In this document: piece after piece, positions 3,216 through 24,433 of the stretch
Layout of the letters: the number at the start of each line of letters is the position of its first letter
How positions within the stretch are numbered: position 1 is the first letter of the stretch
Assembly: GCF_055900595.2 (NCBI RefSeq)
Contig: NZ_CM148325.1
Strand: one strand, 5' to 3'
DNA: 64,000 nt
Notes under the pieces: generated by a model
What the model was told of the DNA's origin: nothing
Seen by the model: only the letters and a program-made list of their open reading frames with translations
Databases searched by the model: none
Translations under genes and position numbers: made by a program

Positions 3216-5478
3216 CCTGGATCTCCTTCGACAGTTCGACAAAGAAGGCGCTGTATCCGGCTACGCGCACCACCAGCCCGGCATAATCTTGTGGGCGCTG
3301 TTGCGCTTCCCGCAACGTGTCGGCGTTCACCACGTTAAACTGAATGTGTTGTAATTTAAGCTGGGTAAATGCCCGTAAGAAGTCGGCTAGTTTGCGTAAT
3401 CCCGCTTCACCTTCCAGGGTCGCCGGAGTGAATTTCACGTTCAGCAATGTACCGTTAGAAAGCAGCGTGTTATCGAGCTTGCTGACTGATTTCAGTACCG
3501 CCGTTGGTCCTTGTGCATCCTGGCCCAGCATGGGAGACAAACCACCGTCTGCCAGTTGTTCCCCGGCAAAACGGCCGTCTGGCGTCGCACCAACCACCGC
3601 TCCCAACGGGACATGAGCAGAAACGGTATACGATCCTGGCGTGAAGTAGCCACCGCGCGGGTTCTGGTATTTTTCCACTTCTTTGCAGTAATGACGCAGG
3701 AGTTCAGCGCTAATGTTATCCACCTCGTCGATATCGTTACCGTATTTCTCAAAGCGGTTAATTAAGCGAGCGCGGACTTTTTCGCCTTCTGGCGTTGCGA
3801 AGTTGGCTTTTAATACCGACAGCAATTCGTCAAAACTTAAACGCTGTTGCTCAAAAACCATCCCTTTCAACGCATGGAGAGAATCGCTCAGGTTGGCGAT
3901 ACCGATCCCCTGTACGCCGGAGAAGTTATAACGCGCGCCGCCATCGGTAATATCGCGGCCTTTTTCCAGACAATCGCTGATAAACGATGAGAGCAGCGGT
4001 ACAGGAGCCCAGTCACGATGGCCGATATCACAAATATTGCTGCCTTCAACCATCAGGGTGATGTAGTGGCTGATCTTGACGCGGATCTGTTCCAGCAAAC
4101 CTTCATAACTCAGCGCAGCATTACCTTCATTTTCATGCAGGCAGATTTCCATCACTTTCAGCAGGTTAAACATCGCGATGTCATGCAGACCGTAGGTTCT
4201 GCCGGGAATAGATAATTCCACGCACCCCACTACGGAATAGTCGCGCGCATCTTCCAGCGAAACGCCACGGTTGAGGAACGCTGGCACCACCACTTCATCG
4301 TTGAAGATTTGCGGAATACCCGTGCCGAGGCGGATGGTTTCTGCGGTTTTCATCAGGAACGGCGTGTCGATCAAGGCGTTAGTGCGCACGCCGAGGTTCG
4401 GTTGCGGCAATTGCACGCTTTGATAAGCGTCAAGGCAAAGGAACGAAAGCACGTTCACCGCGCTACGTCCGTTCTCGGTTAAACCGCCGAGCAGTGCGGT
4501 ATAGCCGGTCGGGAAACCTGCGAAATAACGCGCACTGCGGGTGGAGCGTAAAAGCACGATGTCATTGCATTTCACCCATAAAGATTCGAGCAGTTCTTTC
4601 AGGAACGCCGGATCTTCGCCCTGGGTTAATGATGCCTGATAGAATGGCAACATATACTGGTCGAAGCGCCCTAAAGACAGCGAGCTGGCGTTGGATTCGT
4701 ATTGCAGAATGATGTTCATGTACCAGAACAACTGGCACGCCTGCCAGAATGTCTGTGGCTTATGTTCGGCGTTATGGCGGGAGATCTCCGCCATAGTCAG
4801 CAGTTCTTCGCGACGCTGGGCATCAGTGCAGTTTGCCGCCATCGTTTCCGCCAGTTCGGCGTAACGCAAAATGTGTTTCTGCGAGGCTTCGAGCAATAAC
4901 AGCGCAGCCTGATAAAAGTGATTCTCCGGCTGTTGCTGGCAATGTTGCTGCATCTGCGCCACCAGCTCACCCAGCCCGTGATTCAGCAGGCGCGGGTAAT
5001 CAATAATGATGTGCCCCTGGCCTTTATCTGTCTGGTTGATACTGAAAATCTGCGTGCTGGTCGCGGCTTTTACTTCATCCGTCATCTGCCCGTTAATAAA
5101 ATCTTTCATCGAGCGTTTTTCCCAGTATGGGAACAGCTCTTCGCGGTAGATACGTTTATCTTCTTCACTAATGGCGAAGCGGTCCTGCGGTCGCGTCGGA
5201 AATTGATCCAGCTCTTTCAGCAGCCAGTAAGGGTCCATTTCCGGCGACATAATCCCGGCGCGCGGTTTTACGGTACGGTTACCAGCAATCAGTTCTTCAT
5301 CACGAATCGAAATTTCAACATGTTCAAGGATATACGCTGTTGCTTTCGCCCGGCGCAATATCACTGGTTCGCCTTCGGTTTGCCGATGGCTGGCGGTATA
5401 AAGCAGCGCCCGCTCCAGCGAGATTTCACGGGTATTAGCAAACAGTGCAGTTTTAAGGCGAGAGATACGATTCGTCAT
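3181..5478 (-). CDS. pflD: Formate acetyltransferase 2 (glycyl radical enzyme, PFL-like)
   Basis: 765-aa ORF with the C-terminal glycyl-radical motif (…VRVAGYSAFF…). Confidence 0.9.
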   Translation of the reverse strand: MTNRISRLKTALFANTREISLERALLYTASHRQTEGEPVILRRAKATAYILEHVEISIRDEELIAGNRTVKPRAGIMSPEMDPYWLLKELDQFPTRPQDRFAISEEDKRIYREELFPYWEKRSMKDFINGQMTDEVKAATSTQIFSINQTDKGQGHIIIDYPRLLNHGLGELVAQMQQHCQQQPENHFYQAALLLLEASQKHILRYAELAETMAANCTDAQRREELLTMAEISRHNAEHKPQTFWQACQLFWYMNIILQYESNASSLSLGRFDQYMLPFYQASLTQGEDPAFLKELLESLWVKCNDIVLLRSTRSARYFAGFPTGYTALLGGLTENGRSAVNVLSFLCLDAYQSVQLPQPNLGVRTNALIDTPFLMKTAETIRLGTGIPQIFNDEVVVPAFLNRGVSLEDARDYSVVGCVELSIPGRTYGLHDIAMFNLLKVMEICLHENEGNAALSYEGLLEQIRVKISHYITLMVEGSNICDIGHRDWAPVPLLSSFISDCLEKGRDITDGGARYNFSGVQGIGIANLSDSLHALKGMVFEQQRLSFDELLSVLKANFATPEGEKVRARLINRFEKYGNDIDEVDNISAELLRHYCKEVEKYQNPRGGYFTPGSYTVSAHVPLGAVVGATPDGRFAGEQLADGGLSPMLGQDAQGPTAVLKSVSKLDNTLLSNGTLLNVKFTPATLEGEAGLRKLADFLRAFTQLKLQHIQFNVVNADTLREAQQRPQDYAGLVVRVAGYSAFFVELSKEIQDDIIRRTAHQL

Positions 5479-5528
5479 GAGGAACTCCTGTGGGAAAGCG
5501 AACCCGCCCTTACGGGCGGGATAAGAAC

Positions 5529-5849
5529 TTAAGCGGTTTGCGCCAGGTGAGCTTCAATTTTGCTCATAATGGCATCAGCACGTTTTACCGCGTCGCTGAT
5601 GTTGACGCGCACAATGGTCTTGCCAGCAAAACGCTCTTCAAACTTGATGCCGATATCTTTGGTCAGAATCACCATATCGGCGCTCGCCACGTCTTCCGCA
5701 GTCAGTTCATTTTCCAGACCAATCGAGCCCTGGGTTTCTACTTTCACTTCCCAGCCTTTCGCTTTCGCGGCACTTTCCAGCGCCTCTGCCGCCATATAAG
5801 TATGGGCAACACCAGATGGACACGCGGTTACTGCAATAATTTTCGTCAT
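5529..5849 (-). CDS. frwB: PTS fructose-like IIB component FrwB
   Basis: MTKIIAVTACPSGVAHTYMAAE…, paralog of FrwD. Confidence 0.85.
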   Translation of the reverse strand: MTKIIAVTACPSGVAHTYMAAEALESAAKAKGWEVKVETQGSIGLENELTAEDVASADMVILTKDIGIKFEERFAGKTIVRVNISDAVKRADAIMSKIEAHLAQTA

Positions 5850-17237: not shown

Positions 17238-18797
17238 TTATTTAATATCTTTCACGCGCATACCGTTGATCTGTTCATCCGTGATGGTGTTACCCGCTTT
17301 AAAGTAATCAACCACCGCGTGATAAACGTAATAACCGCCCGTCGTATTGCGCGCTTTACCCTCGGTAAACGCGGTAAAACCATCTCCACCATCAGCAAGG
17401 AAACTCTGAGTAGCAATGTGGTAAACCGTCGCATCTTCAATCGGTTTGCCATTCAGCGTCAGCGAGATAACCCGCTGACCAACCGGCTTGCTGCTGTCGT
17501 ACTTCATTTCCAGGCCTTTCGATACCTGTAAAACGCCATTACTTAAACTTGCGCCGTGTTCCATCAAACCGCGTAATTGTTTACCCGTGAGTTCCATCGT
17601 CACCAGTTCGTTGGGGAACGGGAAGGTACTGATGACGCCACCCATCGTAATTGCACCCGCCGGGATCTCATTGCGAATCCCACCAGAGTTGGTTAACGCC
17701 AACTGGGTATTTTTACCCGCCGCTACCAGTAAAGCGTCCGCCGCCAGGTTCCCCAGGGATGCCGATTCACCATAGGCACGTTTTAATTCAACTGGCGATT
17801 GCGCCACCGTTTGCTGCACGACTTCATCCAGCTTTTTATTCCAACTATCAATCACCTGTTTTGTTTGCGCATCGGGCTTCCACTCGTCGGCGTAAAGGGT
17901 TTTAAGCTCGAAGTTTTTCACCGTAAAAGTGTGCGGTTTCTCTTTGTAGTCGAGAACCAGTTTACCCACATCAATCCCACCGCTGTCAGTGGAGAGGATG
18001 AGCGTATTGCCGACTTTAATCGGTTCCGGCGTACCCACATGTGCATGCCCGGTGATCAAAATATCCAGCCCTTTCACCTGACTTGCCGTCTGAATATCTT
18101 TATCCAGTGCGCGGCGCACATCTGTGCCCCCCATACTGGACTGGCGGGCCGGAACACCTTCGTGAATCAGCGCAACGGTCAAATCAACCTTGCCTTTGAG
18201 TTCATCGATATAACGTTGTAGCCATTTAATTTCATCACGCGCCTCAATACCCACTCGCGTTGCCGCAGATACCGTATCATTAAAGGCAAATACACCGTGC
18301 AAACCTATAACACCAATTTTCACGCCGTCTTTTTCAATAATGGTATATGGCTTATCCCAGAATGATTTACTGCTGTTCTGATAAAAAACATTACCCTGCA
18401 CAATCGGGAATTGTGCCTGACTCAACTGTAATAACGTATTGTCCCAGCCGTGATCAAATTCATGATTACCTATAGTGGCCGCATCGAACGGCATGGTATT
18501 CATAATATCGATAATCGCCTTGCCTTTAGTCAGGCTGCTGATATACGGCCCGGTAAAATAGTCACCCGCATCAAAAAACCAGGTCGCTTTGTTTTTAGCT
18601 TTTTCTTGTTTAACAAGCGTAGTGATATTTGCCCAGCCGCCAATATCCCGTTTACCCTCAGCAATCCACGGCACTTTATAGGGCTCTACATGTGCGTGGA
18701 GGTCATTGGTATAAATAATGGTGACATCTTTGGCGCAGGCCCAAAACGGCAGTGTTAATGCGATACCCGCAGCAAGCATTTTAATTTTCATAAACAA
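17238..18797 (-). CDS. Island paralog 1: secreted 5'-nucleotidase/UDP-sugar hydrolase-like metallophosphoesterase (UshA family)
   Basis: N-terminal signal peptide; metallophosphatase motifs DLHAH, DAGDYF, GNHEFD, HEG, GHAH; C-terminal 5'-nucleotidase-like domain; no K-12 counterpart at this locus. Confidence 0.8.
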
Positions 18798-18850
18798 TCC
18801 CTTCCAGTGAGATAAAGGATTGCTACATTACGTTCTGAAAGGCTTTTTTA

Positions 18851-18866
18851 TGTGAGAATACTCACA
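18851..18866. promoter_or_regulatory. Perfect CRP-binding palindrome in the divergent intergenic region between island paralog 1 and the Zn-ribbon gene
   Basis: tgtga-gaatac-tcaca equals the TGTGA-N6-TCACA CRP consensus, with an A/T-rich flank. Confidence 0.55.
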
Positions 18867-18923
18867 TCCAGAGGCAATAACTGTAGGACAAAATCGACGA
18901 CCTTATGAAATCGTTGGTGATAT

Positions 18924-20051
18924 ATGTCAAATCTGTTTGCGATTAATGTCTGTAAAACGTTCGGTTGTCGAAATTTGGGATTGGCCTCATCGGAAGATTA
19001 CAGTTGGCCAGACTATAAACTGGGTTTTCCGGCACTGCACTGCCAGGCATGCGGAAGTTACCCCCCTTTGTTTGATGAACAACAATTTCGTGACTGGTTG
19101 TCAGTTCACATGACTGCGTGTGCCATAGAAACAGGGCATTTTTGTCCATCATGCTATTGTAAAGAAAAGATTTTTTATGGCCACAACCCGCATGGAACAC
19201 AACGCGTTCAATGCCGTTCATGCAAAAAAGTCTGGACTCCGAAACAGCAGCCAGCAAGAGAAATTACGTATCCCCAGTCCATTGAAACCGTTCAACTGTT
19301 CATGCCCTTTCAAGGAGCCAGCGCACTACAAAAGCTCTATGTTTTAGTCAGTCTTGACGCCACTCGTGGCAACATCCTTCATCTCTCCACGAATTATACG
19401 CAACATCAGACAGGAGACAGTCTGCGGTACAGTTACAGAGGCAATACAGAACCAACTGAGCACCATAGCGATATTGTGCAGAGGGTAGATATGCGTGAAG
19501 CGCAATTCTTGCGCCGGAGCCAGTTCGATGAAATTCAGTATGGCAGTGCTGTGCTCAAGCGCAATGGCAAGGGAGCCATACTACGCCCGGTTATCACGGC
19601 TCACGGGCATTTCAGAATACTGAAAATCCGCTTTCCACATGTCAAAACGCATATCATTTCACACGAATGTTTTCTGAGAGGCGCAATTATTACAGCCTGG
19701 GCAGATCAGTTCCGCCAACAACAAGGCGAACTTTGGTTCGTAGAAGAAGAAATCAGCGACCGTAACGCTGATATTCCCTGGCATTTTCAGGGAACGACAT
19801 ACCATGGTTGGTGGCAAAATCAGTGGCAACGCTGGGGGCAGGGGAATAACAGCAAGATGGTCTGCCTGCTCACAGGAGTCTCCTTAGAAAGGGGCGCAAA
19901 TGTTTCTCTGGCAACCAGTCGTTGCTTTATCACATGGCTGACAGACCAACACGACTTTACCCAAAGCGCGTTATTATCCGCAGGTCGCGTAACGAAAATG
20001 CTGACCTCACTGGCGTTAAAATACAATGAATCGCTCACTCCATCTTGTTAG
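18924..20051 (+). CDS. Cys-rich Zn-ribbon protein resembling an IS1595/ISXO2-family transposase; catalytic integrity uncertain
   Basis: FCPSCYC…(12 aa)…RVQCRSCKKVW follows the CPxCG…RYxCKxCxKxF transposase Zn-ribbon pattern; a downstream stretch (THIISHECF…FVEEEISDRN) loosely resembles the end of a DDE domain. Confidence 0.55.
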   Translation: MSNLFAINVCKTFGCRNLGLASSEDYSWPDYKLGFPALHCQACGSYPPLFDEQQFRDWLSVHMTACAIETGHFCPSCYCKEKIFYGHNPHGTQRVQCRSCKKVWTPKQQPAREITYPQSIETVQLFMPFQGASALQKLYVLVSLDATRGNILHLSTNYTQHQTGDSLRYSYRGNTEPTEHHSDIVQRVDMREAQFLRRSQFDEIQYGSAVLKRNGKGAILRPVITAHGHFRILKIRFPHVKTHIISHECFLRGAIITAWADQFRQQQGELWFVEEEISDRNADIPWHFQGTTYHGWWQNQWQRWGQGNNSKMVCLLTGVSLERGANVSLATSRCFITWLTDQHDFTQSALLSAGRVTKMLTSLALKYNESLTPSC

Positions 20052-20169
20052 TCAATACACTCGACAAACGACCATAAATTAATGGGATCACTATTTCTCA
20101 TTTAATTAAATATATGAATGTATGACTGAAAAATATAATCACAGTCAATGTTTAATTAATAACATTATT

Positions 20170-20185
20170 TGTTACTAAGATCACA
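20170..20185. promoter_or_regulatory. CRP-like site (one mismatch) in the AT-rich promoter region upstream of island paralog 2
   Basis: tgtta-ctaaga-tcaca, about 95 bp upstream of the ATG at 20281. Confidence 0.3.
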
Positions 20186-20280
20186 TAATACTTTCCTGAC
20201 CTATGCTTACATAAAAATAAGACACGGAGTTCCTTTTATTTAAATAATTCAACCAATGTAACAACCCCTATCAAGGAGGG

Positions 20281-21834
20281 ATGATGAGAACTGTATTTAC
20301 GACTTTATCAGTCATATTCAGCGTGATGTTTTCTCACAGTATACTAGCTCAGGACGTTACTATTTATTATACGAATGATATTCACGCACATGTCAATCCG
20401 GCAAAAATTCCCGCTGTTGATAAGAACAGACTTGTAGGTGGTATGGCTAATATTGCAGGCATCGTTAATGAAGCGAAGAAAAAAAACAAAGATGTCTTTT
20501 TCTTTGATGCAGGCGACTATTTTACCGGTCCGTATATCAGTACCCTGACCAAAGGTGAAGCTATTATTGATATCATGAACACCATGCCCTTTGATGCGGT
20601 GTCCGTTGGTAATCACGAGTTCGATCACGGCGTGCCCAATATGGTATCTCAGTTATCAAAAGCAAAATTCCCCATTCTGCTGGGAAATATTTACTACACC
20701 GATACAAATAAACCAGTTTGGGATCATCCGTGGACTATTATCGAAAAAGATGGTTTAAAGATTGGTGTGATTGGATTGCATGGTGCATTCGCTTTCTATG
20801 ATACAGTCGCGGCAAAAGCACGTGAAGGCGTAGAAGCCAGAGACGAAATTAAATATTTAAATAAAGCACTTGCAGAATTAAAAGGTAAAGTCGACATTAC
20901 CGTTTTGCTAATTCACGAAGGTGTTCCGGCGCGTCAATCAAGCTTTGGTAGTAAAGATGTGGAGCGGCTACTACAGGCAGATATTGAGACAGCTAAAAAA
21001 GTGAATGGTGTTGATGTCTTAATTACCGGTCACGCACATGTCGGAACACCGCAACCAATAAAAGTTAATAACACATTAATTGTATCTACCGATGCATACG
21101 GCACCGACATCGGAAAACTTGTGCTTGATTACAATCCGAAAACGAAGAAAATTGATAGTTATAATGGTGAGTTAATCACCATCTTCGCAGATCAATTTAA
21201 ACCTGACACCATCGTTCAAAATACTATCGATAAATGGAGTGCAAAGCTTAACAAAATAACACAGGAAGTTGTCGGCCATTCTCCCGTAGTTTTAACACGT
21301 GAGTATGGCAGTTCTTCTTCTACCGGTAACCTTATTCTTGATGCAATGATGGAAAAAACACCAGATGCCATTGCCGGATTTCAAAATAGCGGTGGGATGC
21401 GAGCTGATTTTCCTAAAGGTGATATCACGCTGGGAGATGTTATTAGCACATTCCCCTTTAATAATGACCTCATCGAGATGGATTTGACGGGCCGCGATCT
21501 CAAATCGTTGATGACGCATGCAACCAATCTAACTAACGGTGTGTTACAGGTTTCAAAAAGCGTTGCGGTTGTCTATGACAGCAAAAAACCACTGAACCAA
21601 CGGTTAATCTCTTTCACCATTAACGGCAAACCCGTGGAAGATAATCAAACATATCGTATTGTCACGCACTCCTTTTGTGCCAGTGGTGGTGACGGTTTTG
21701 AAGCATTTTTGAATGGAAAAAATGTGAAGACGATACCGGGAACAACCTCGGCGGAATCTATCATCGATTATTTCAAAAATCATAAACCTGTCACCCCAGA
21801 CTTAACTAAACGAGTAATGGACGTCGCCAAATAA
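20281..21834 (+). CDS. Island paralog 2: secreted UshA-family 5'-nucleotidase-like metallophosphoesterase
   Basis: Signal peptide; DIHAH, DAGDYF, GNHEFD, GHAH motifs; AT-rich codon usage. Confidence 0.8.
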   Translation: MMRTVFTTLSVIFSVMFSHSILAQDVTIYYTNDIHAHVNPAKIPAVDKNRLVGGMANIAGIVNEAKKKNKDVFFFDAGDYFTGPYISTLTKGEAIIDIMNTMPFDAVSVGNHEFDHGVPNMVSQLSKAKFPILLGNIYYTDTNKPVWDHPWTIIEKDGLKIGVIGLHGAFAFYDTVAAKAREGVEARDEIKYLNKALAELKGKVDITVLLIHEGVPARQSSFGSKDVERLLQADIETAKKVNGVDVLITGHAHVGTPQPIKVNNTLIVSTDAYGTDIGKLVLDYNPKTKKIDSYNGELITIFADQFKPDTIVQNTIDKWSAKLNKITQEVVGHSPVVLTREYGSSSSTGNLILDAMMEKTPDAIAGFQNSGGMRADFPKGDITLGDVISTFPFNNDLIEMDLTGRDLKSLMTHATNLTNGVLQVSKSVAVVYDSKKPLNQRLISFTINGKPVEDNQTYRIVTHSFCASGGDGFEAFLNGKNVKTIPGTTSAESIIDYFKNHKPVTPDLTKRVMDVAK

Positions 21835-21868
21835 AATATCATTTATCAGTCTATTTATTTAACAAGGA

Positions 21869-23494
21869 ATGCGAATGAAAACAGTGCAGCGTACTTTACT
21901 TGCCGCAACATTGCTGACTATTTTTTCGGTCTCAGCCATGGCGCAGGATGTCACGATTATTTATACCAATGATCTTCACGCTCATGTGGATTCTTATAAA
22001 GTGCCGTATATCGCAGACGGAAAACGCGACATTGGCGGCTTTGCCAATATATCTACTTTAGTAAAACAAGAGAAAGCGAAAAATAAAGCCACCTTTTATT
22101 TTGATGCTGGAGACTATTTCACCGGCCCTTATATCAGCAGTCTGACAAAGGGCGAAGCAATAATTGACATTATGAATACCATGCCTTTTGACGCAGTATC
22201 AATCGGTAATCATGAGTTTGACCATGGCTGGGATAATGCCCTGCGACAATTAAGCAAAGCGAATTTTCCTGTTTTATTGGGCAATGTTTATCATAAAGAG
22301 AGTGAGAAACCCTTCTGGAACAAGCCCTACACCATCCTGGAAAAAGATGGCATCAAGATTGGTATTATTGGGCTACACGGCGTATTTGCATTTAATGATA
22401 CGGTCTCGGAGCTCTCTCTCCAGGGACTCGATAATGACAATAATAACCGCTTTGATAAATCTTCCGAGACCCTTAAGAATCAGGGGATTGAAGCACGTGA
22501 TGAAGTGAAGTATTTGCAGCATTATATCGACGAGTTACGTGATAAGGTTGACCTCACTGTGGCGCTGGTTCATGAAGGCGTTCCGGCGCGTCAGTCCAGC
22601 ATTGGCAATACAGATGTTAGACGCGCTCTTGATAAAGATATTCAAACCGCTAGCAAGGTGAAAGGATTGGATATTCTGATTACCGGGCATGCCCACGTCG
22701 GAACGCCAGAGCCAATCAAAGTCGGCAACACCTTAATCCTTTCAACTGATAGTGGCGGTATCGATATTGGTAAATTAGTCCTTGATGTCAACCCTACAGC
22801 TCGTACCCATAAAATGAAGAGCTTTGAGCTGAAAACAGTTTATGCCGATGAATGGATACCCGATCCAACGACACAAAAAGTTATCAATGGCTGGAATAAA
22901 AAACTGGCGGATATTGTACGCCAACCAGTGGGTGAATCATCGATTGCATTAACTCGCGCCTATGGTGAGTCATCGCAACTAGGCAACCTGTTTACCGATG
23001 CAATGCTTGTCGCTGCTCCGACTGCACAGATTGCATTGATAAACTCCGGCAGCTTACGTGCGGATATAAATGCAGGCACGATTACCTTTGGCGACATTAC
23101 CAGTACATTCCCCTTCAAGAATGAACTTACTGAAATGGATCTCAGCGGTAAGGATCTGCGTAACCTACTGGAACACGGGGCATCGCTTACCAATGGCATC
23201 CTGCAAATGTCAAAAGGCGCAGAAATGCGCTATACCCCGCAGAAACCAGTAGGTCAGCGCATAGTATCTTTTAAAATTAATGGTGAAGAGATCGTTGATA
23301 CGAATATTTACCATGTTGCAACAACGACTTTCCTTGCACTGGGGGGCGATGGTTTTCTGGCATTCAAAGAAGGGAAAAATGTTCAGGTCCGCGCCGGAAA
23401 TAACATGTCCGATGTCGTGATCGATTATTTGAAGAAAGGCCACAAGATTACGCCTGCACAGGTAAATGAAATGCGGGTGGACGTTAGCAAATAA
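21869..23494 (+). CDS. Island paralog 3: secreted UshA-family 5'-nucleotidase-like metallophosphoesterase with a ~24-aa Asn/Asp-rich insertion
   Basis: Signal peptide; same motif set; closest by eye to paralog 1 but with an extra ELSLQGLDNDNNNRFDKSSETLKN segment. Confidence 0.8.
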   Translation: MRMKTVQRTLLAATLLTIFSVSAMAQDVTIIYTNDLHAHVDSYKVPYIADGKRDIGGFANISTLVKQEKAKNKATFYFDAGDYFTGPYISSLTKGEAIIDIMNTMPFDAVSIGNHEFDHGWDNALRQLSKANFPVLLGNVYHKESEKPFWNKPYTILEKDGIKIGIIGLHGVFAFNDTVSELSLQGLDNDNNNRFDKSSETLKNQGIEARDEVKYLQHYIDELRDKVDLTVALVHEGVPARQSSIGNTDVRRALDKDIQTASKVKGLDILITGHAHVGTPEPIKVGNTLILSTDSGGIDIGKLVLDVNPTARTHKMKSFELKTVYADEWIPDPTTQKVINGWNKKLADIVRQPVGESSIALTRAYGESSQLGNLFTDAMLVAAPTAQIALINSGSLRADINAGTITFGDITSTFPFKNELTEMDLSGKDLRNLLEHGASLTNGILQMSKGAEMRYTPQKPVGQRIVSFKINGEEIVDTNIYHVATTTFLALGGDGFLAFKEGKNVQVRAGNNMSDVVIDYLKKGHKITPAQVNEMRVDVSK

Positions 23495-23506
23495 TAAAAA
23501 AATTAT

Positions 23507-23541
23507 AATGCCATTCATTCACTGAATGGCATTATTTTTCT
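23507..23541 (+). terminator. Rho-independent terminator or attenuator between paralog 3 and the Tsx-like gene
   Basis: aatgccattcattcactgaatggcatt hairpin followed by atttttc. Confidence 0.55.
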
Positions 23542-23572
23542 CTAAATCAACAATAAATAATGAGATATATTT

Positions 23573-24433
23573 ATGTGTATAAAAAAGCACGGGATAGCTT
23601 TATCGATTCTATTAATACCTTGCATTGGAAACGCTCAGGAAATTAAAAGTGAGGAAGGCTGGTTACATCAAAGCTTGAATGTCATTGGTCGCACAGACTC
23701 TCGCTTTGGCCCAAGGCTGACTAACGACCTCTACCCTGAATATACTGTAGCAGGAAGAAAAGACTGGTTTGATTTTTATGGTTATGTTGATCTACCAAAA
23801 TTCTTTGGCGTCGGCAGTCACTATGATGTTGGGATCTGGGATGAGGGCTCACCACTATTTACGGAAATAGAACCTCGGTTTTCCATTGACAAATTGACCG
23901 GATTAAATCTTGCGTTCGGCCCTTTTAAAGAATGGTTCATTGCAAACAACTATGTCTATGATATGGGTGACAACCAGTCATCCCGGCAAAGTACATGGTA
24001 TATGGGGCTTGGTACAGATATCGACACGGGTCTACCAATTAAGCTTTCTGCCAATATATACGCCAAGTATCAGTGGCAAAACTATGGTGCCGCTAATGAA
24101 AATGAATGGGACGGATATCGATTCAAAATAAAATATAGCATTCCTCTTACCCATTTATTCGGAGGGCGATTGGTATACAATAGTTTTACTAACTTTGATT
24201 TTGGCTCCGATCTTGCGGACAAATCACACAATAATAAACGAACCAGTAATGCTATTGCTTCAAGCCATATCCTTTCCCTGCTATATGAACACTGGAAATT
24301 TGCATTTACACTACGTTATTTTCACAACGGTGGACAATGGAATGCTGGGGAGAAAGTTAACTTCGGAGATGGTCCATTTGAATTAAAAAACACAGGATGG
24401 GGAACCTATACTACTATTGGTTATCAATTTTAA
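23573..24433 (+). CDS. Tsx-like outer-membrane nucleoside-specific channel (Tsx/OmpK family paralog)
   Basis: Signal peptide; long collinear similarity to E. coli Tsx (…KDWFDFYGY…[17 protein letters not shown]…[16 protein letters not shown]…[26 protein letters not shown]…); C-terminal aromatic residue. Confidence 0.8.

Follow-up and report, generated by a model that had tools for sequence, protein, structure and literature searches.

The 64,000-nucleotide stretch of DNA analysed here (the window) is a piece of an Escherichia coli chromosome with the gene order katG, metF, island, metL, metB, metJ, yiiX, rpmE and priA. The island between metF and metL spans positions 17238-24433 and comprises five genes, among them three paralogous nucleotidase genes:

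17238-18797, minus strand: paralog 1 (par1), 'bifunctional metallophosphatase/5'-nucleotidase' with a short loop of 17 aa; orthologue of c4898 (PDB 3IVD/3IVE)
18924-20051, plus strand: uncharacterised Cys-rich protein of 375 aa (hyp375) with four CxxC motifs
20281-21834, plus strand: paralog 2 (par2), short loop, directly upstream of par3
21869-23494, plus strand: paralog 3 (par3), periplasmic 5'-nucleotidase of the UshA/CD73 family, 541 aa (539 aa from the RefSeq start at 21875)
23573-24433, plus strand: Tsx-family nucleoside channel gene adjoining par3 (Pfam Channel_Tsx 4.9e-70; NCBIfam PRK15106)

Approximately 12% of the complete genomes of E. coli carry the island, UTI89, 83972 and APEC strains among them, and the par3 gene of the window is 100% identical to the copy in E. 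coli strain Z0117EC0005. In each of the seven genomes inspected (the window and six others), par3 has a Tsx-like gene as its neighbour despite a differing gene order. This order is par2-par3-tsx in the window (20281-24433) and par1-par2-tsx-par3 in Citrobacter, Enterobacter and other Escherichia (L002-L007), whose Tsx-like protein is only about 58% identical to that of the window; two of these loci, L006 and L007, carry par2 in two tandem copies. In the gap from the par3 stop (23494) to the start of the Tsx-like gene (23573), a hairpin with a 13-bp stem and T-runs on both strands (23505-23535) looks like a bidirectional terminator, so that the Tsx-like gene may be transcribed apart from par2-par3.

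For hyp375, neither a Pfam family nor a PDB relative was found, and its sole match was a weak one to an InsA/IS1-type zinc ribbon at residues 74-115. Homologues are also located just upstream of the par1 homologue in L004, L005 and L008-L033, and a divergent pair of hyp375 and a par1-type nucleotidase occupies the metL-metF interval of Klebsiella, Citrobacter, Kosakonia, Phytobacter, Enterobacter and others. It could function as a dedicated regulator or represent a domesticated fragment of a transposase.

Par3 is annotated in RefSeq as 'bifunctional metallophosphatase/5'-nucleotidase', and both of its Pfam domains, the N-terminal, calcineurin-like PF00149 Metallophos (5.6e-11) and the C-terminal PF02872 5_nucleotid_C (5.8e-37), exceed the gathering score. 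Two regions of the protein outside the insertion described below are relevant here:

21869-21943, plus strand: predicted Sec signal peptide, residues 1-25, with the cleavage site inferred from sequence between ...SVSAMA and QD; AlphaFold2 helix at residues 2-22
22943-23371, plus strand: C-terminal substrate-binding domain (Pfam 5_nucleotid_C), residues 359-501, containing I391, S395, T411, K417, T486, L491 and K500

The signal peptide sequence contains no lipobox Cys. A Foldseek search with the par3 model returned 3IVD, 2Z1A, CD73 and UshA, each with a probability of 1.0. The ligands of the dimetal site and the Asp-His dyad (D35, H37, D82, N114, H115, D118, H235, H274 and H276) are invariant in the par3 clade, in the motifs DxH, GD, GNHE..D, H and GHxH, which align with those of CD73 and 3IVD. 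Equally invariant are the substrate-binding R363 and R397 and the nucleobase-clamp residues F416 and F496 of the C-terminal domain, which are aligned to CD73 R354, R395, F417 and F500. No NCBIfam equivalog was reached, and the score of 156.3 bits against the cutoff of 600 for the UshA equivalog NF007109 indicates that par3 is not UshA. The protein belongs instead to the enterobacterial c4898/3IVD-type subfamily, with which it shares 67% identity (to 3IVD), the GLHG..FAF.DT motif and the genomic setting, namely a place beside hyp375 or in the metL-metF island. The reading best supported by these sequence features is that par3 is a still catalytic, probably sub-functionalised periplasmic 5'-nucleotidase. 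Biochemical data for par1, par2 or par3 were not found in the literature searched.

The feature that sets par3 apart lies within its Pfam Metallophos match (residues 29-277) and can be delimited as follows:

22376-22486, plus strand: par3 loop, residues 170-206, from the strand KIGIIGL to IEARDE; topological equivalent of CD73 loop 177-190
22409-22468, plus strand: 20-aa insertion ELSLQGLDNDNNNRFDKSSE, E181-E200, bounded by clean alignment gaps against par1, par2 and homologues
22421-22462, plus strand: conserved core of the insertion, Q185-S198, QGLDNDxNNRFDKS, from the orthologue codon comparison

The preliminary description of this DNA had noted an Asn/Asp-rich insertion of about 24 residues in the metallophosphatase domain of par3, unique among the three paralogs of the window. 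The sequence and the three-paralog alignment bear this out, as they do the presence of extra residues between FAFNDTVS and GIEARDE, but the net gain amounts to exactly 20 aa, whose coordinates fall inside the range 22380-22500 given previously. Between these two blocks, par3 has 25 residues (ELSLQGLDNDNNNRFDKSSETLKNQ), whereas par1 (AATRV) and par2 (AKARE) have five each and not the five to eight given previously. An identical clean gap of 20 residues separates par3 from the solved structure 3IVD. Measured from the GxxGL strand to IEARDE, the loop comprises 17 aa in every other homologue examined (more than 100) and 37 aa in 17 of 17 proteins of the par3 clade, so the insertion is no chance effect of the alignment.

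Of 5426 complete E. coli genomes, 658 carry the par3 gene, full length every time, and a 71-nt segment that includes the insertion is present in one copy in each of these 658 carriers, only inside the par3 gene. This segment was not detected elsewhere on any chromosome or plasmid of the 5426 genomes, and thus no DNA source was found. In a protein database search, every protein at least 81% identical to par3 carried the insertion; these proteins originate from E. coli, E. albertii, Escherichia sp., Citrobacter spp., Enterobacter asburiae and Enterobacter chuandaensis, and the consensus of their loops is SELSIQGLDNDxNNRFDKSAAALKNQ. A loop of exactly 17 residues is found in the next-closest clade (Cronobacter and Atlantibacter, 70-76% identity), in the par1 and par2 clades and in remoter relatives. 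In neighbour-joining trees built with the insertion columns left out, the insertion-bearing proteins formed one clade in 100 of 100 bootstrap replicates, nested in short-loop clades. Monophyly and nesting reveal a single gain in a loop of otherwise invariant length, without repeated loss, and the trees indicate that the insertion was acquired once, after the par3 lineage had split from its short-loop sister clade. Rather than being variably present among orthologues, a pattern that the preliminary description had considered, the insertion is thus found in all of them, in E. coli as well as in Citrobacter, E. albertii and Enterobacter, and is maintained by purifying selection (see below).

Two par3-related sequences are of interest in their own right. 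The E. coli protein P0015 (537 aa, 75% overall identity to par3) is a natural chimera with a par3-like N-terminal half that includes the insertion and a par1-like C-terminal half, and therefore indicates recombination between paralogs. In E. albertii NBRC 107761 (L007, approximately 5434-5547), the par3 orthologue loses its frame near the 3' end, diverges at about residue 494 and terminates with MKCELTPV, so that it is either a pseudogene created by a frameshift or reflects an error in the draft assembly; elsewhere in E. albertii the gene is intact (P0008).

The insertion is bracketed in the window by a perfect 9-bp inverted repeat, GGTCTCGGA/TCCGAGACC, at 22402-22410 and 22463-22471. Such an arrangement would be compatible with a scar left by mobile or repetitive DNA, or with an assembly or engineering artefact. 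The repeat contains BsaI sites, and a SacI site lies beside it. Orthologues from Citrobacter, Enterobacter, E. albertii and other Escherichia, however, lack it, and it was therefore judged coincidental and, being confined to this lineage, rejected as a signature of transposition, template switching or engineering. Two longer imperfect inverted repeats are neither nested nor collinear and resemble AT-rich chance matches. MITE- or REP-like elements are characterised by multiple genomic copies and conserved terminal repeats, whereas this segment occurs once per genome and its repeat is not conserved. Given furthermore that the insertion preserves the reading frame, that it is subject to purifying selection and that its 71-nt segment is confined to par3 in all 658 carriers, we exclude an origin of this kind and assign it practically no probability.

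To assess selection, par3 of the window was compared codon by codon with five orthologues from genome contigs (loci L002-L007). For the insertion, a pS of 0.52 and a pN of 0.036 were obtained, resulting in a pN/pS of 0.069 in comparison to 0.073 for the rest of the gene; the pN is close to the gene median of 0.029 derived from sliding windows of 20 codons. The core Q185-S198 exhibits an even lower pN of 0.017 at a pS of 0.47, while values of 0.10-0.14 are reached in variable surface stretches of the enzyme (residues 307-326 and 447-486). Purifying selection on the insertion is thus as strong as on the remainder of the enzyme. Among the codon-compared orthologues, position 191 is the only core residue to vary, while third codon positions are free to change; a few additional core differences occur in P0006, P0009, P0011 and P0014, which are more divergent. 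An invariant core peptide with variable synonymous sites points to a constraint on the peptide and not on the DNA or RNA, and the freedom of the synonymous sites renders an RNA or regulatory role of the inserted DNA unlikely. Scans for promoters and terminators in and around the insertion yielded fewer promoter-like sites than shuffled sequence.

An AlphaFold2 model of par3 based on an alignment of 84 homologues reached a pLDDT of 85 and a pTM of 0.85 and superimposes well on known structures, with TM scores of 0.88/0.95 to 3IVD (Foldseek) and of 0.76 to closed versus 0.53 to open CD73. The pLDDT drops below 50 for residues 180-204 and to 34-37 within the insertion, and a model built solely from the 13 insertion-bearing orthologues had a mean pLDDT of 43.5 and was uninformative. 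Low confidence in this model does not simply equate to an unconstrained region, because the PARQSSxG loop that follows the HEG metal motif (residues 239-246, approximately 22583-22606) is strongly conserved and also has a pLDDT below 50. Due to the low values at the insertion, its location rests on homology. The KIGIIGL strand and the IEARDE segment align unambiguously to CD73, to snake-venom 5'-nucleotidase and to Thermus 5'-nucleotidase. In a profile alignment to human CD73, which was checked for its numbering against Asn117 and is approximate at residue level in this variable loop (24% identity), S180 of par3 corresponds to Leu184 and the residues following the insertion to Ser185 and Asn186. 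In closed CD73, the carbonyl of Leu184 is located 3.9 A from the adenine N6 and has been proposed to discriminate AMP from GMP and IMP (PMC8677862). Pro182-Leu184 and Asn186 of CD73 line the inter-domain cleft and contact inhibitors (PMC8657903, PMC13077603). Homology thus lends plausibility to the earlier placement of the insertion beside the active-site cap, and the profile alignment assigns the segment to the equivalent of the nucleobase-contacting loop of CD73 rather than to a distal linker. Just upstream of the insertion, no variation was observed at H170, A174, F175, D177 and T178 across 84 homologues of the c4898 subfamily down to 55% identity, a degree of conservation that is uncommon in surface loops and in keeping with a functional role. 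The insertion peptide alone had neither a Pfam nor a PDB match at E values up to 10, and a 51-aa query around it matched only seven short fragments in a large protein database.

Outside the insertion, the par3 clade shows 18 alignment columns with a fixed residue that is essentially absent from the other 71 homologues. Seven of these fall into three short stretches with substrate motifs of the C-terminal domain, where 1.5 would be expected; the binomial p value of approximately 4e-4 is suggestive only, because the regions were picked after the list of columns had been seen. The affected stretches are that of the phosphate-binding Arg, with a G-to-S replacement in NSG[G to S]LR397 together with I391, that of the first clamp Phe, FPF416 followed by a P-to-K replacement and preceded by T411, and that of the second clamp, where T486, a change from D, P or T to L in FLA[D/P/T to L]GGDGF496 and K500 are characteristic of the par3 clade. 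Moreover, Asn204 is fixed in the par3 clade in place of the Arg conserved in short-loop proteins (AxxR).

On the basis of these sequence data, we hypothesize that the insertion constitutes a flexible specificity or gating flap of the par3 5'-nucleotidase that alters substrate selection or domain closure, a reading to which we assign about an even chance of being correct. The insertion expands one surface loop of the N-terminal domain in a secreted dimetal 5'-nucleotidase and has been retained by purifying selection. Upon closure of the enzyme, the expanded loop, whose counterpart in CD73 touches the nucleobase, would swing against the C-terminal substrate-binding domain and could act as a flap bordering the inter-domain cleft. 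In combination with the substitutions beside the nucleobase clamp and the phosphate-binding Arg, this flap may alter the fit of the nucleotide or the closing of the domains, so that the nucleoside pocket would be remodelled on both domain faces. Contact of the insertion with the substrate or the C-terminal domain, and any effect on specificity, are inferred, while its extent, single origin, fixation and constraint, the retained catalytic residues and the correspondence of the loop to CD73 177-190 emerge from the data themselves. The substrate range of par3 would then differ from that of par1 and par2 by sub- or neo-functionalisation, and such a remodelled pocket would explain the retention of a third paralog.

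An alternative explanation, which we consider rather unlikely, is that of a structural passenger that packs on the surface of the N-terminal domain, for instance as a small hairpin via L182, I/L184, L187 and F195, and is kept for folding without an effect on catalysis or specificity. The invariance of L182, L187 and F195 and the restriction of position 184 to I or L fit such packing, the AlphaFold2 model shows no sign of a cleft contact, and the pN of the whole insertion is similar to the gene median and not exceptionally low. Packing of hydrophobic residues does not account for the polar, D/N-rich core, which is nearly invariant as well at a pS of about 0.5, and the changes in the pocket of the C-terminal domain co-occur with the insertion. 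In addition, the insertion site maps to a loop that is functionally used in CD73 (PMC8677862), in better agreement with the flap than with a passenger.

Other possibilities arise from the composition and the genomic context of the segment, in line with the earlier suggestion that the acidic, Asn-rich loop might add a metal- or partner-binding site. The D-N-D-x-N-N-R-F-D stretch could be a non-canonical loop for calcium or another divalent cation (DxDxDG- or EF-hand-like) that is ordered by the metal and regulates or stabilises the enzyme. Enzymes of the UshA/CD73 family respond to divalent cations, the stretch provides oxygen donors at EF-hand positions 1, 3, 5 and 9 with position 4 being variable, the relaxed pattern D.[DN].[DNS][GN] fits seven of eight distinct orthologue loops, and a low pLDDT would suit a ligand-dependent fold. 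The canonical motif tests nevertheless failed: none of the eight distinct loops matches the 13-residue EF-hand pattern PS00018, with mismatches at positions 8 (F where an aliphatic residue is expected), 12 (S/A) and 13 (E/A), of which position 12, the acidic bidentate ligand in the pattern, is Ser or Ala; the strict DxDxDG is absent from all orthologues; P0014 has Ser at position 9 and His at position 6; and similarity of the insertion peptide to Pfam or PDB entries is lacking. A metal site is thus distinctly unlikely. Even less probable in our view is that the segment docks a protein whose gene lies in the vicinity, such as the Tsx-like channel or another paralog, and would hold the nucleotidase at the nucleoside channel of the outer membrane. 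The constant proximity of par3 and the Tsx-like gene in seven of seven genomes of differing gene order is consistent with this idea, and a segment that is conserved yet predicted to be unstructured is reminiscent of many short linear motifs. However, par2 co-occurs with Tsx likewise and lacks the insertion, identity between the Tsx-like partners of different genera amounts to only about 58% in comparison to the nearly invariant core of the insertion, and the periplasmic turns of Tsx are short. A more ambitious and similarly improbable variant combines these ideas with the flap, which would then be a gate ordered by a ligand or partner (non-canonical cation binding or Tsx docking) that closes over the cleft and grants par3 a substrate class beyond that of the short-loop paralogs, e.g. 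dinucleotides, cyclic nucleotides or NAD-type compounds. If so, the island with three nucleotidases and a Tsx-like channel would represent a specialised system of ExPEC-type E. coli for scavenging extracellular nucleotides or degrading signals.

The enzyme family, its fold and the hinge mechanism were already known, and the clade-specific and constrained expansion of the loop that corresponds to the nucleobase-contacting one of CD73 is a modest variation on them that appears to be new; no paper describing the par3 insertion was found in the literature searched, including the passages on the 'GR 31' region discussed below. A fixed and constrained loop expansion offers a concrete, mutable handle on the question of why three paralogs are kept, and makes it possible to test, for the CD73/UshA family, how the length of this loop governs specificity or the closing of the domains. 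CD73 inhibitors exploit the loop that is equivalent to the expanded one of par3. Should the insertion turn out to change nothing, it would be a tolerated ornament on an ordinary enzyme.

The island itself corresponds to 'GR 31' of APEC strain BEN2908, for which a Tsx-like ORF and three ORFs with UshA domains of 1620, 1551 and 1554 bp have been reported and termed a possible nucleoside processing and uptake system (PMC12928451). In the passages describing 'GR 31', this assignment is based on domain hits only, and neither the insertion nor experiments are mentioned (PMC12928451). E. coli UshA, a UDP-sugar hydrolase/5'-nucleotidase (1USH) with a hinge-bending domain rotation, resembles par3 as a periplasmic dimetal nucleotidase with the same Pfam domains, but is only about 21% identical, belongs to a different subfamily and is encoded at a locus elsewhere. 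Human CD73 (e.g. 4H2I and 6XUQ) shares the superfamily and the domain architecture, but differs by an identity of about 24%, by being a GPI-anchored eukaryotic dimer and by a loop of 14 aa without a D/N-rich segment. Closer to par3 is c4898 of E. coli CFT073, a putative 5'-nucleotidase whose structures with uridine (3IVD) and cytidine (3IVE) are apparently unpublished, as a search for 3IVD, 3IVE and c4898 yielded no relevant paper. In common with par3, c4898 has the two-domain fold at a full-length identity of about 67%, the metal, dyad, Arg and Phe-clamp residues and the gene neighbourhood; in contrast to par3, it has a loop of 17 aa and other residues at pocket positions 391, 395, 411, 417, 486 and 491. 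The 20-aa insertion and the substitutions in the pocket are all that distinguishes par3 from the c4898 subfamily.
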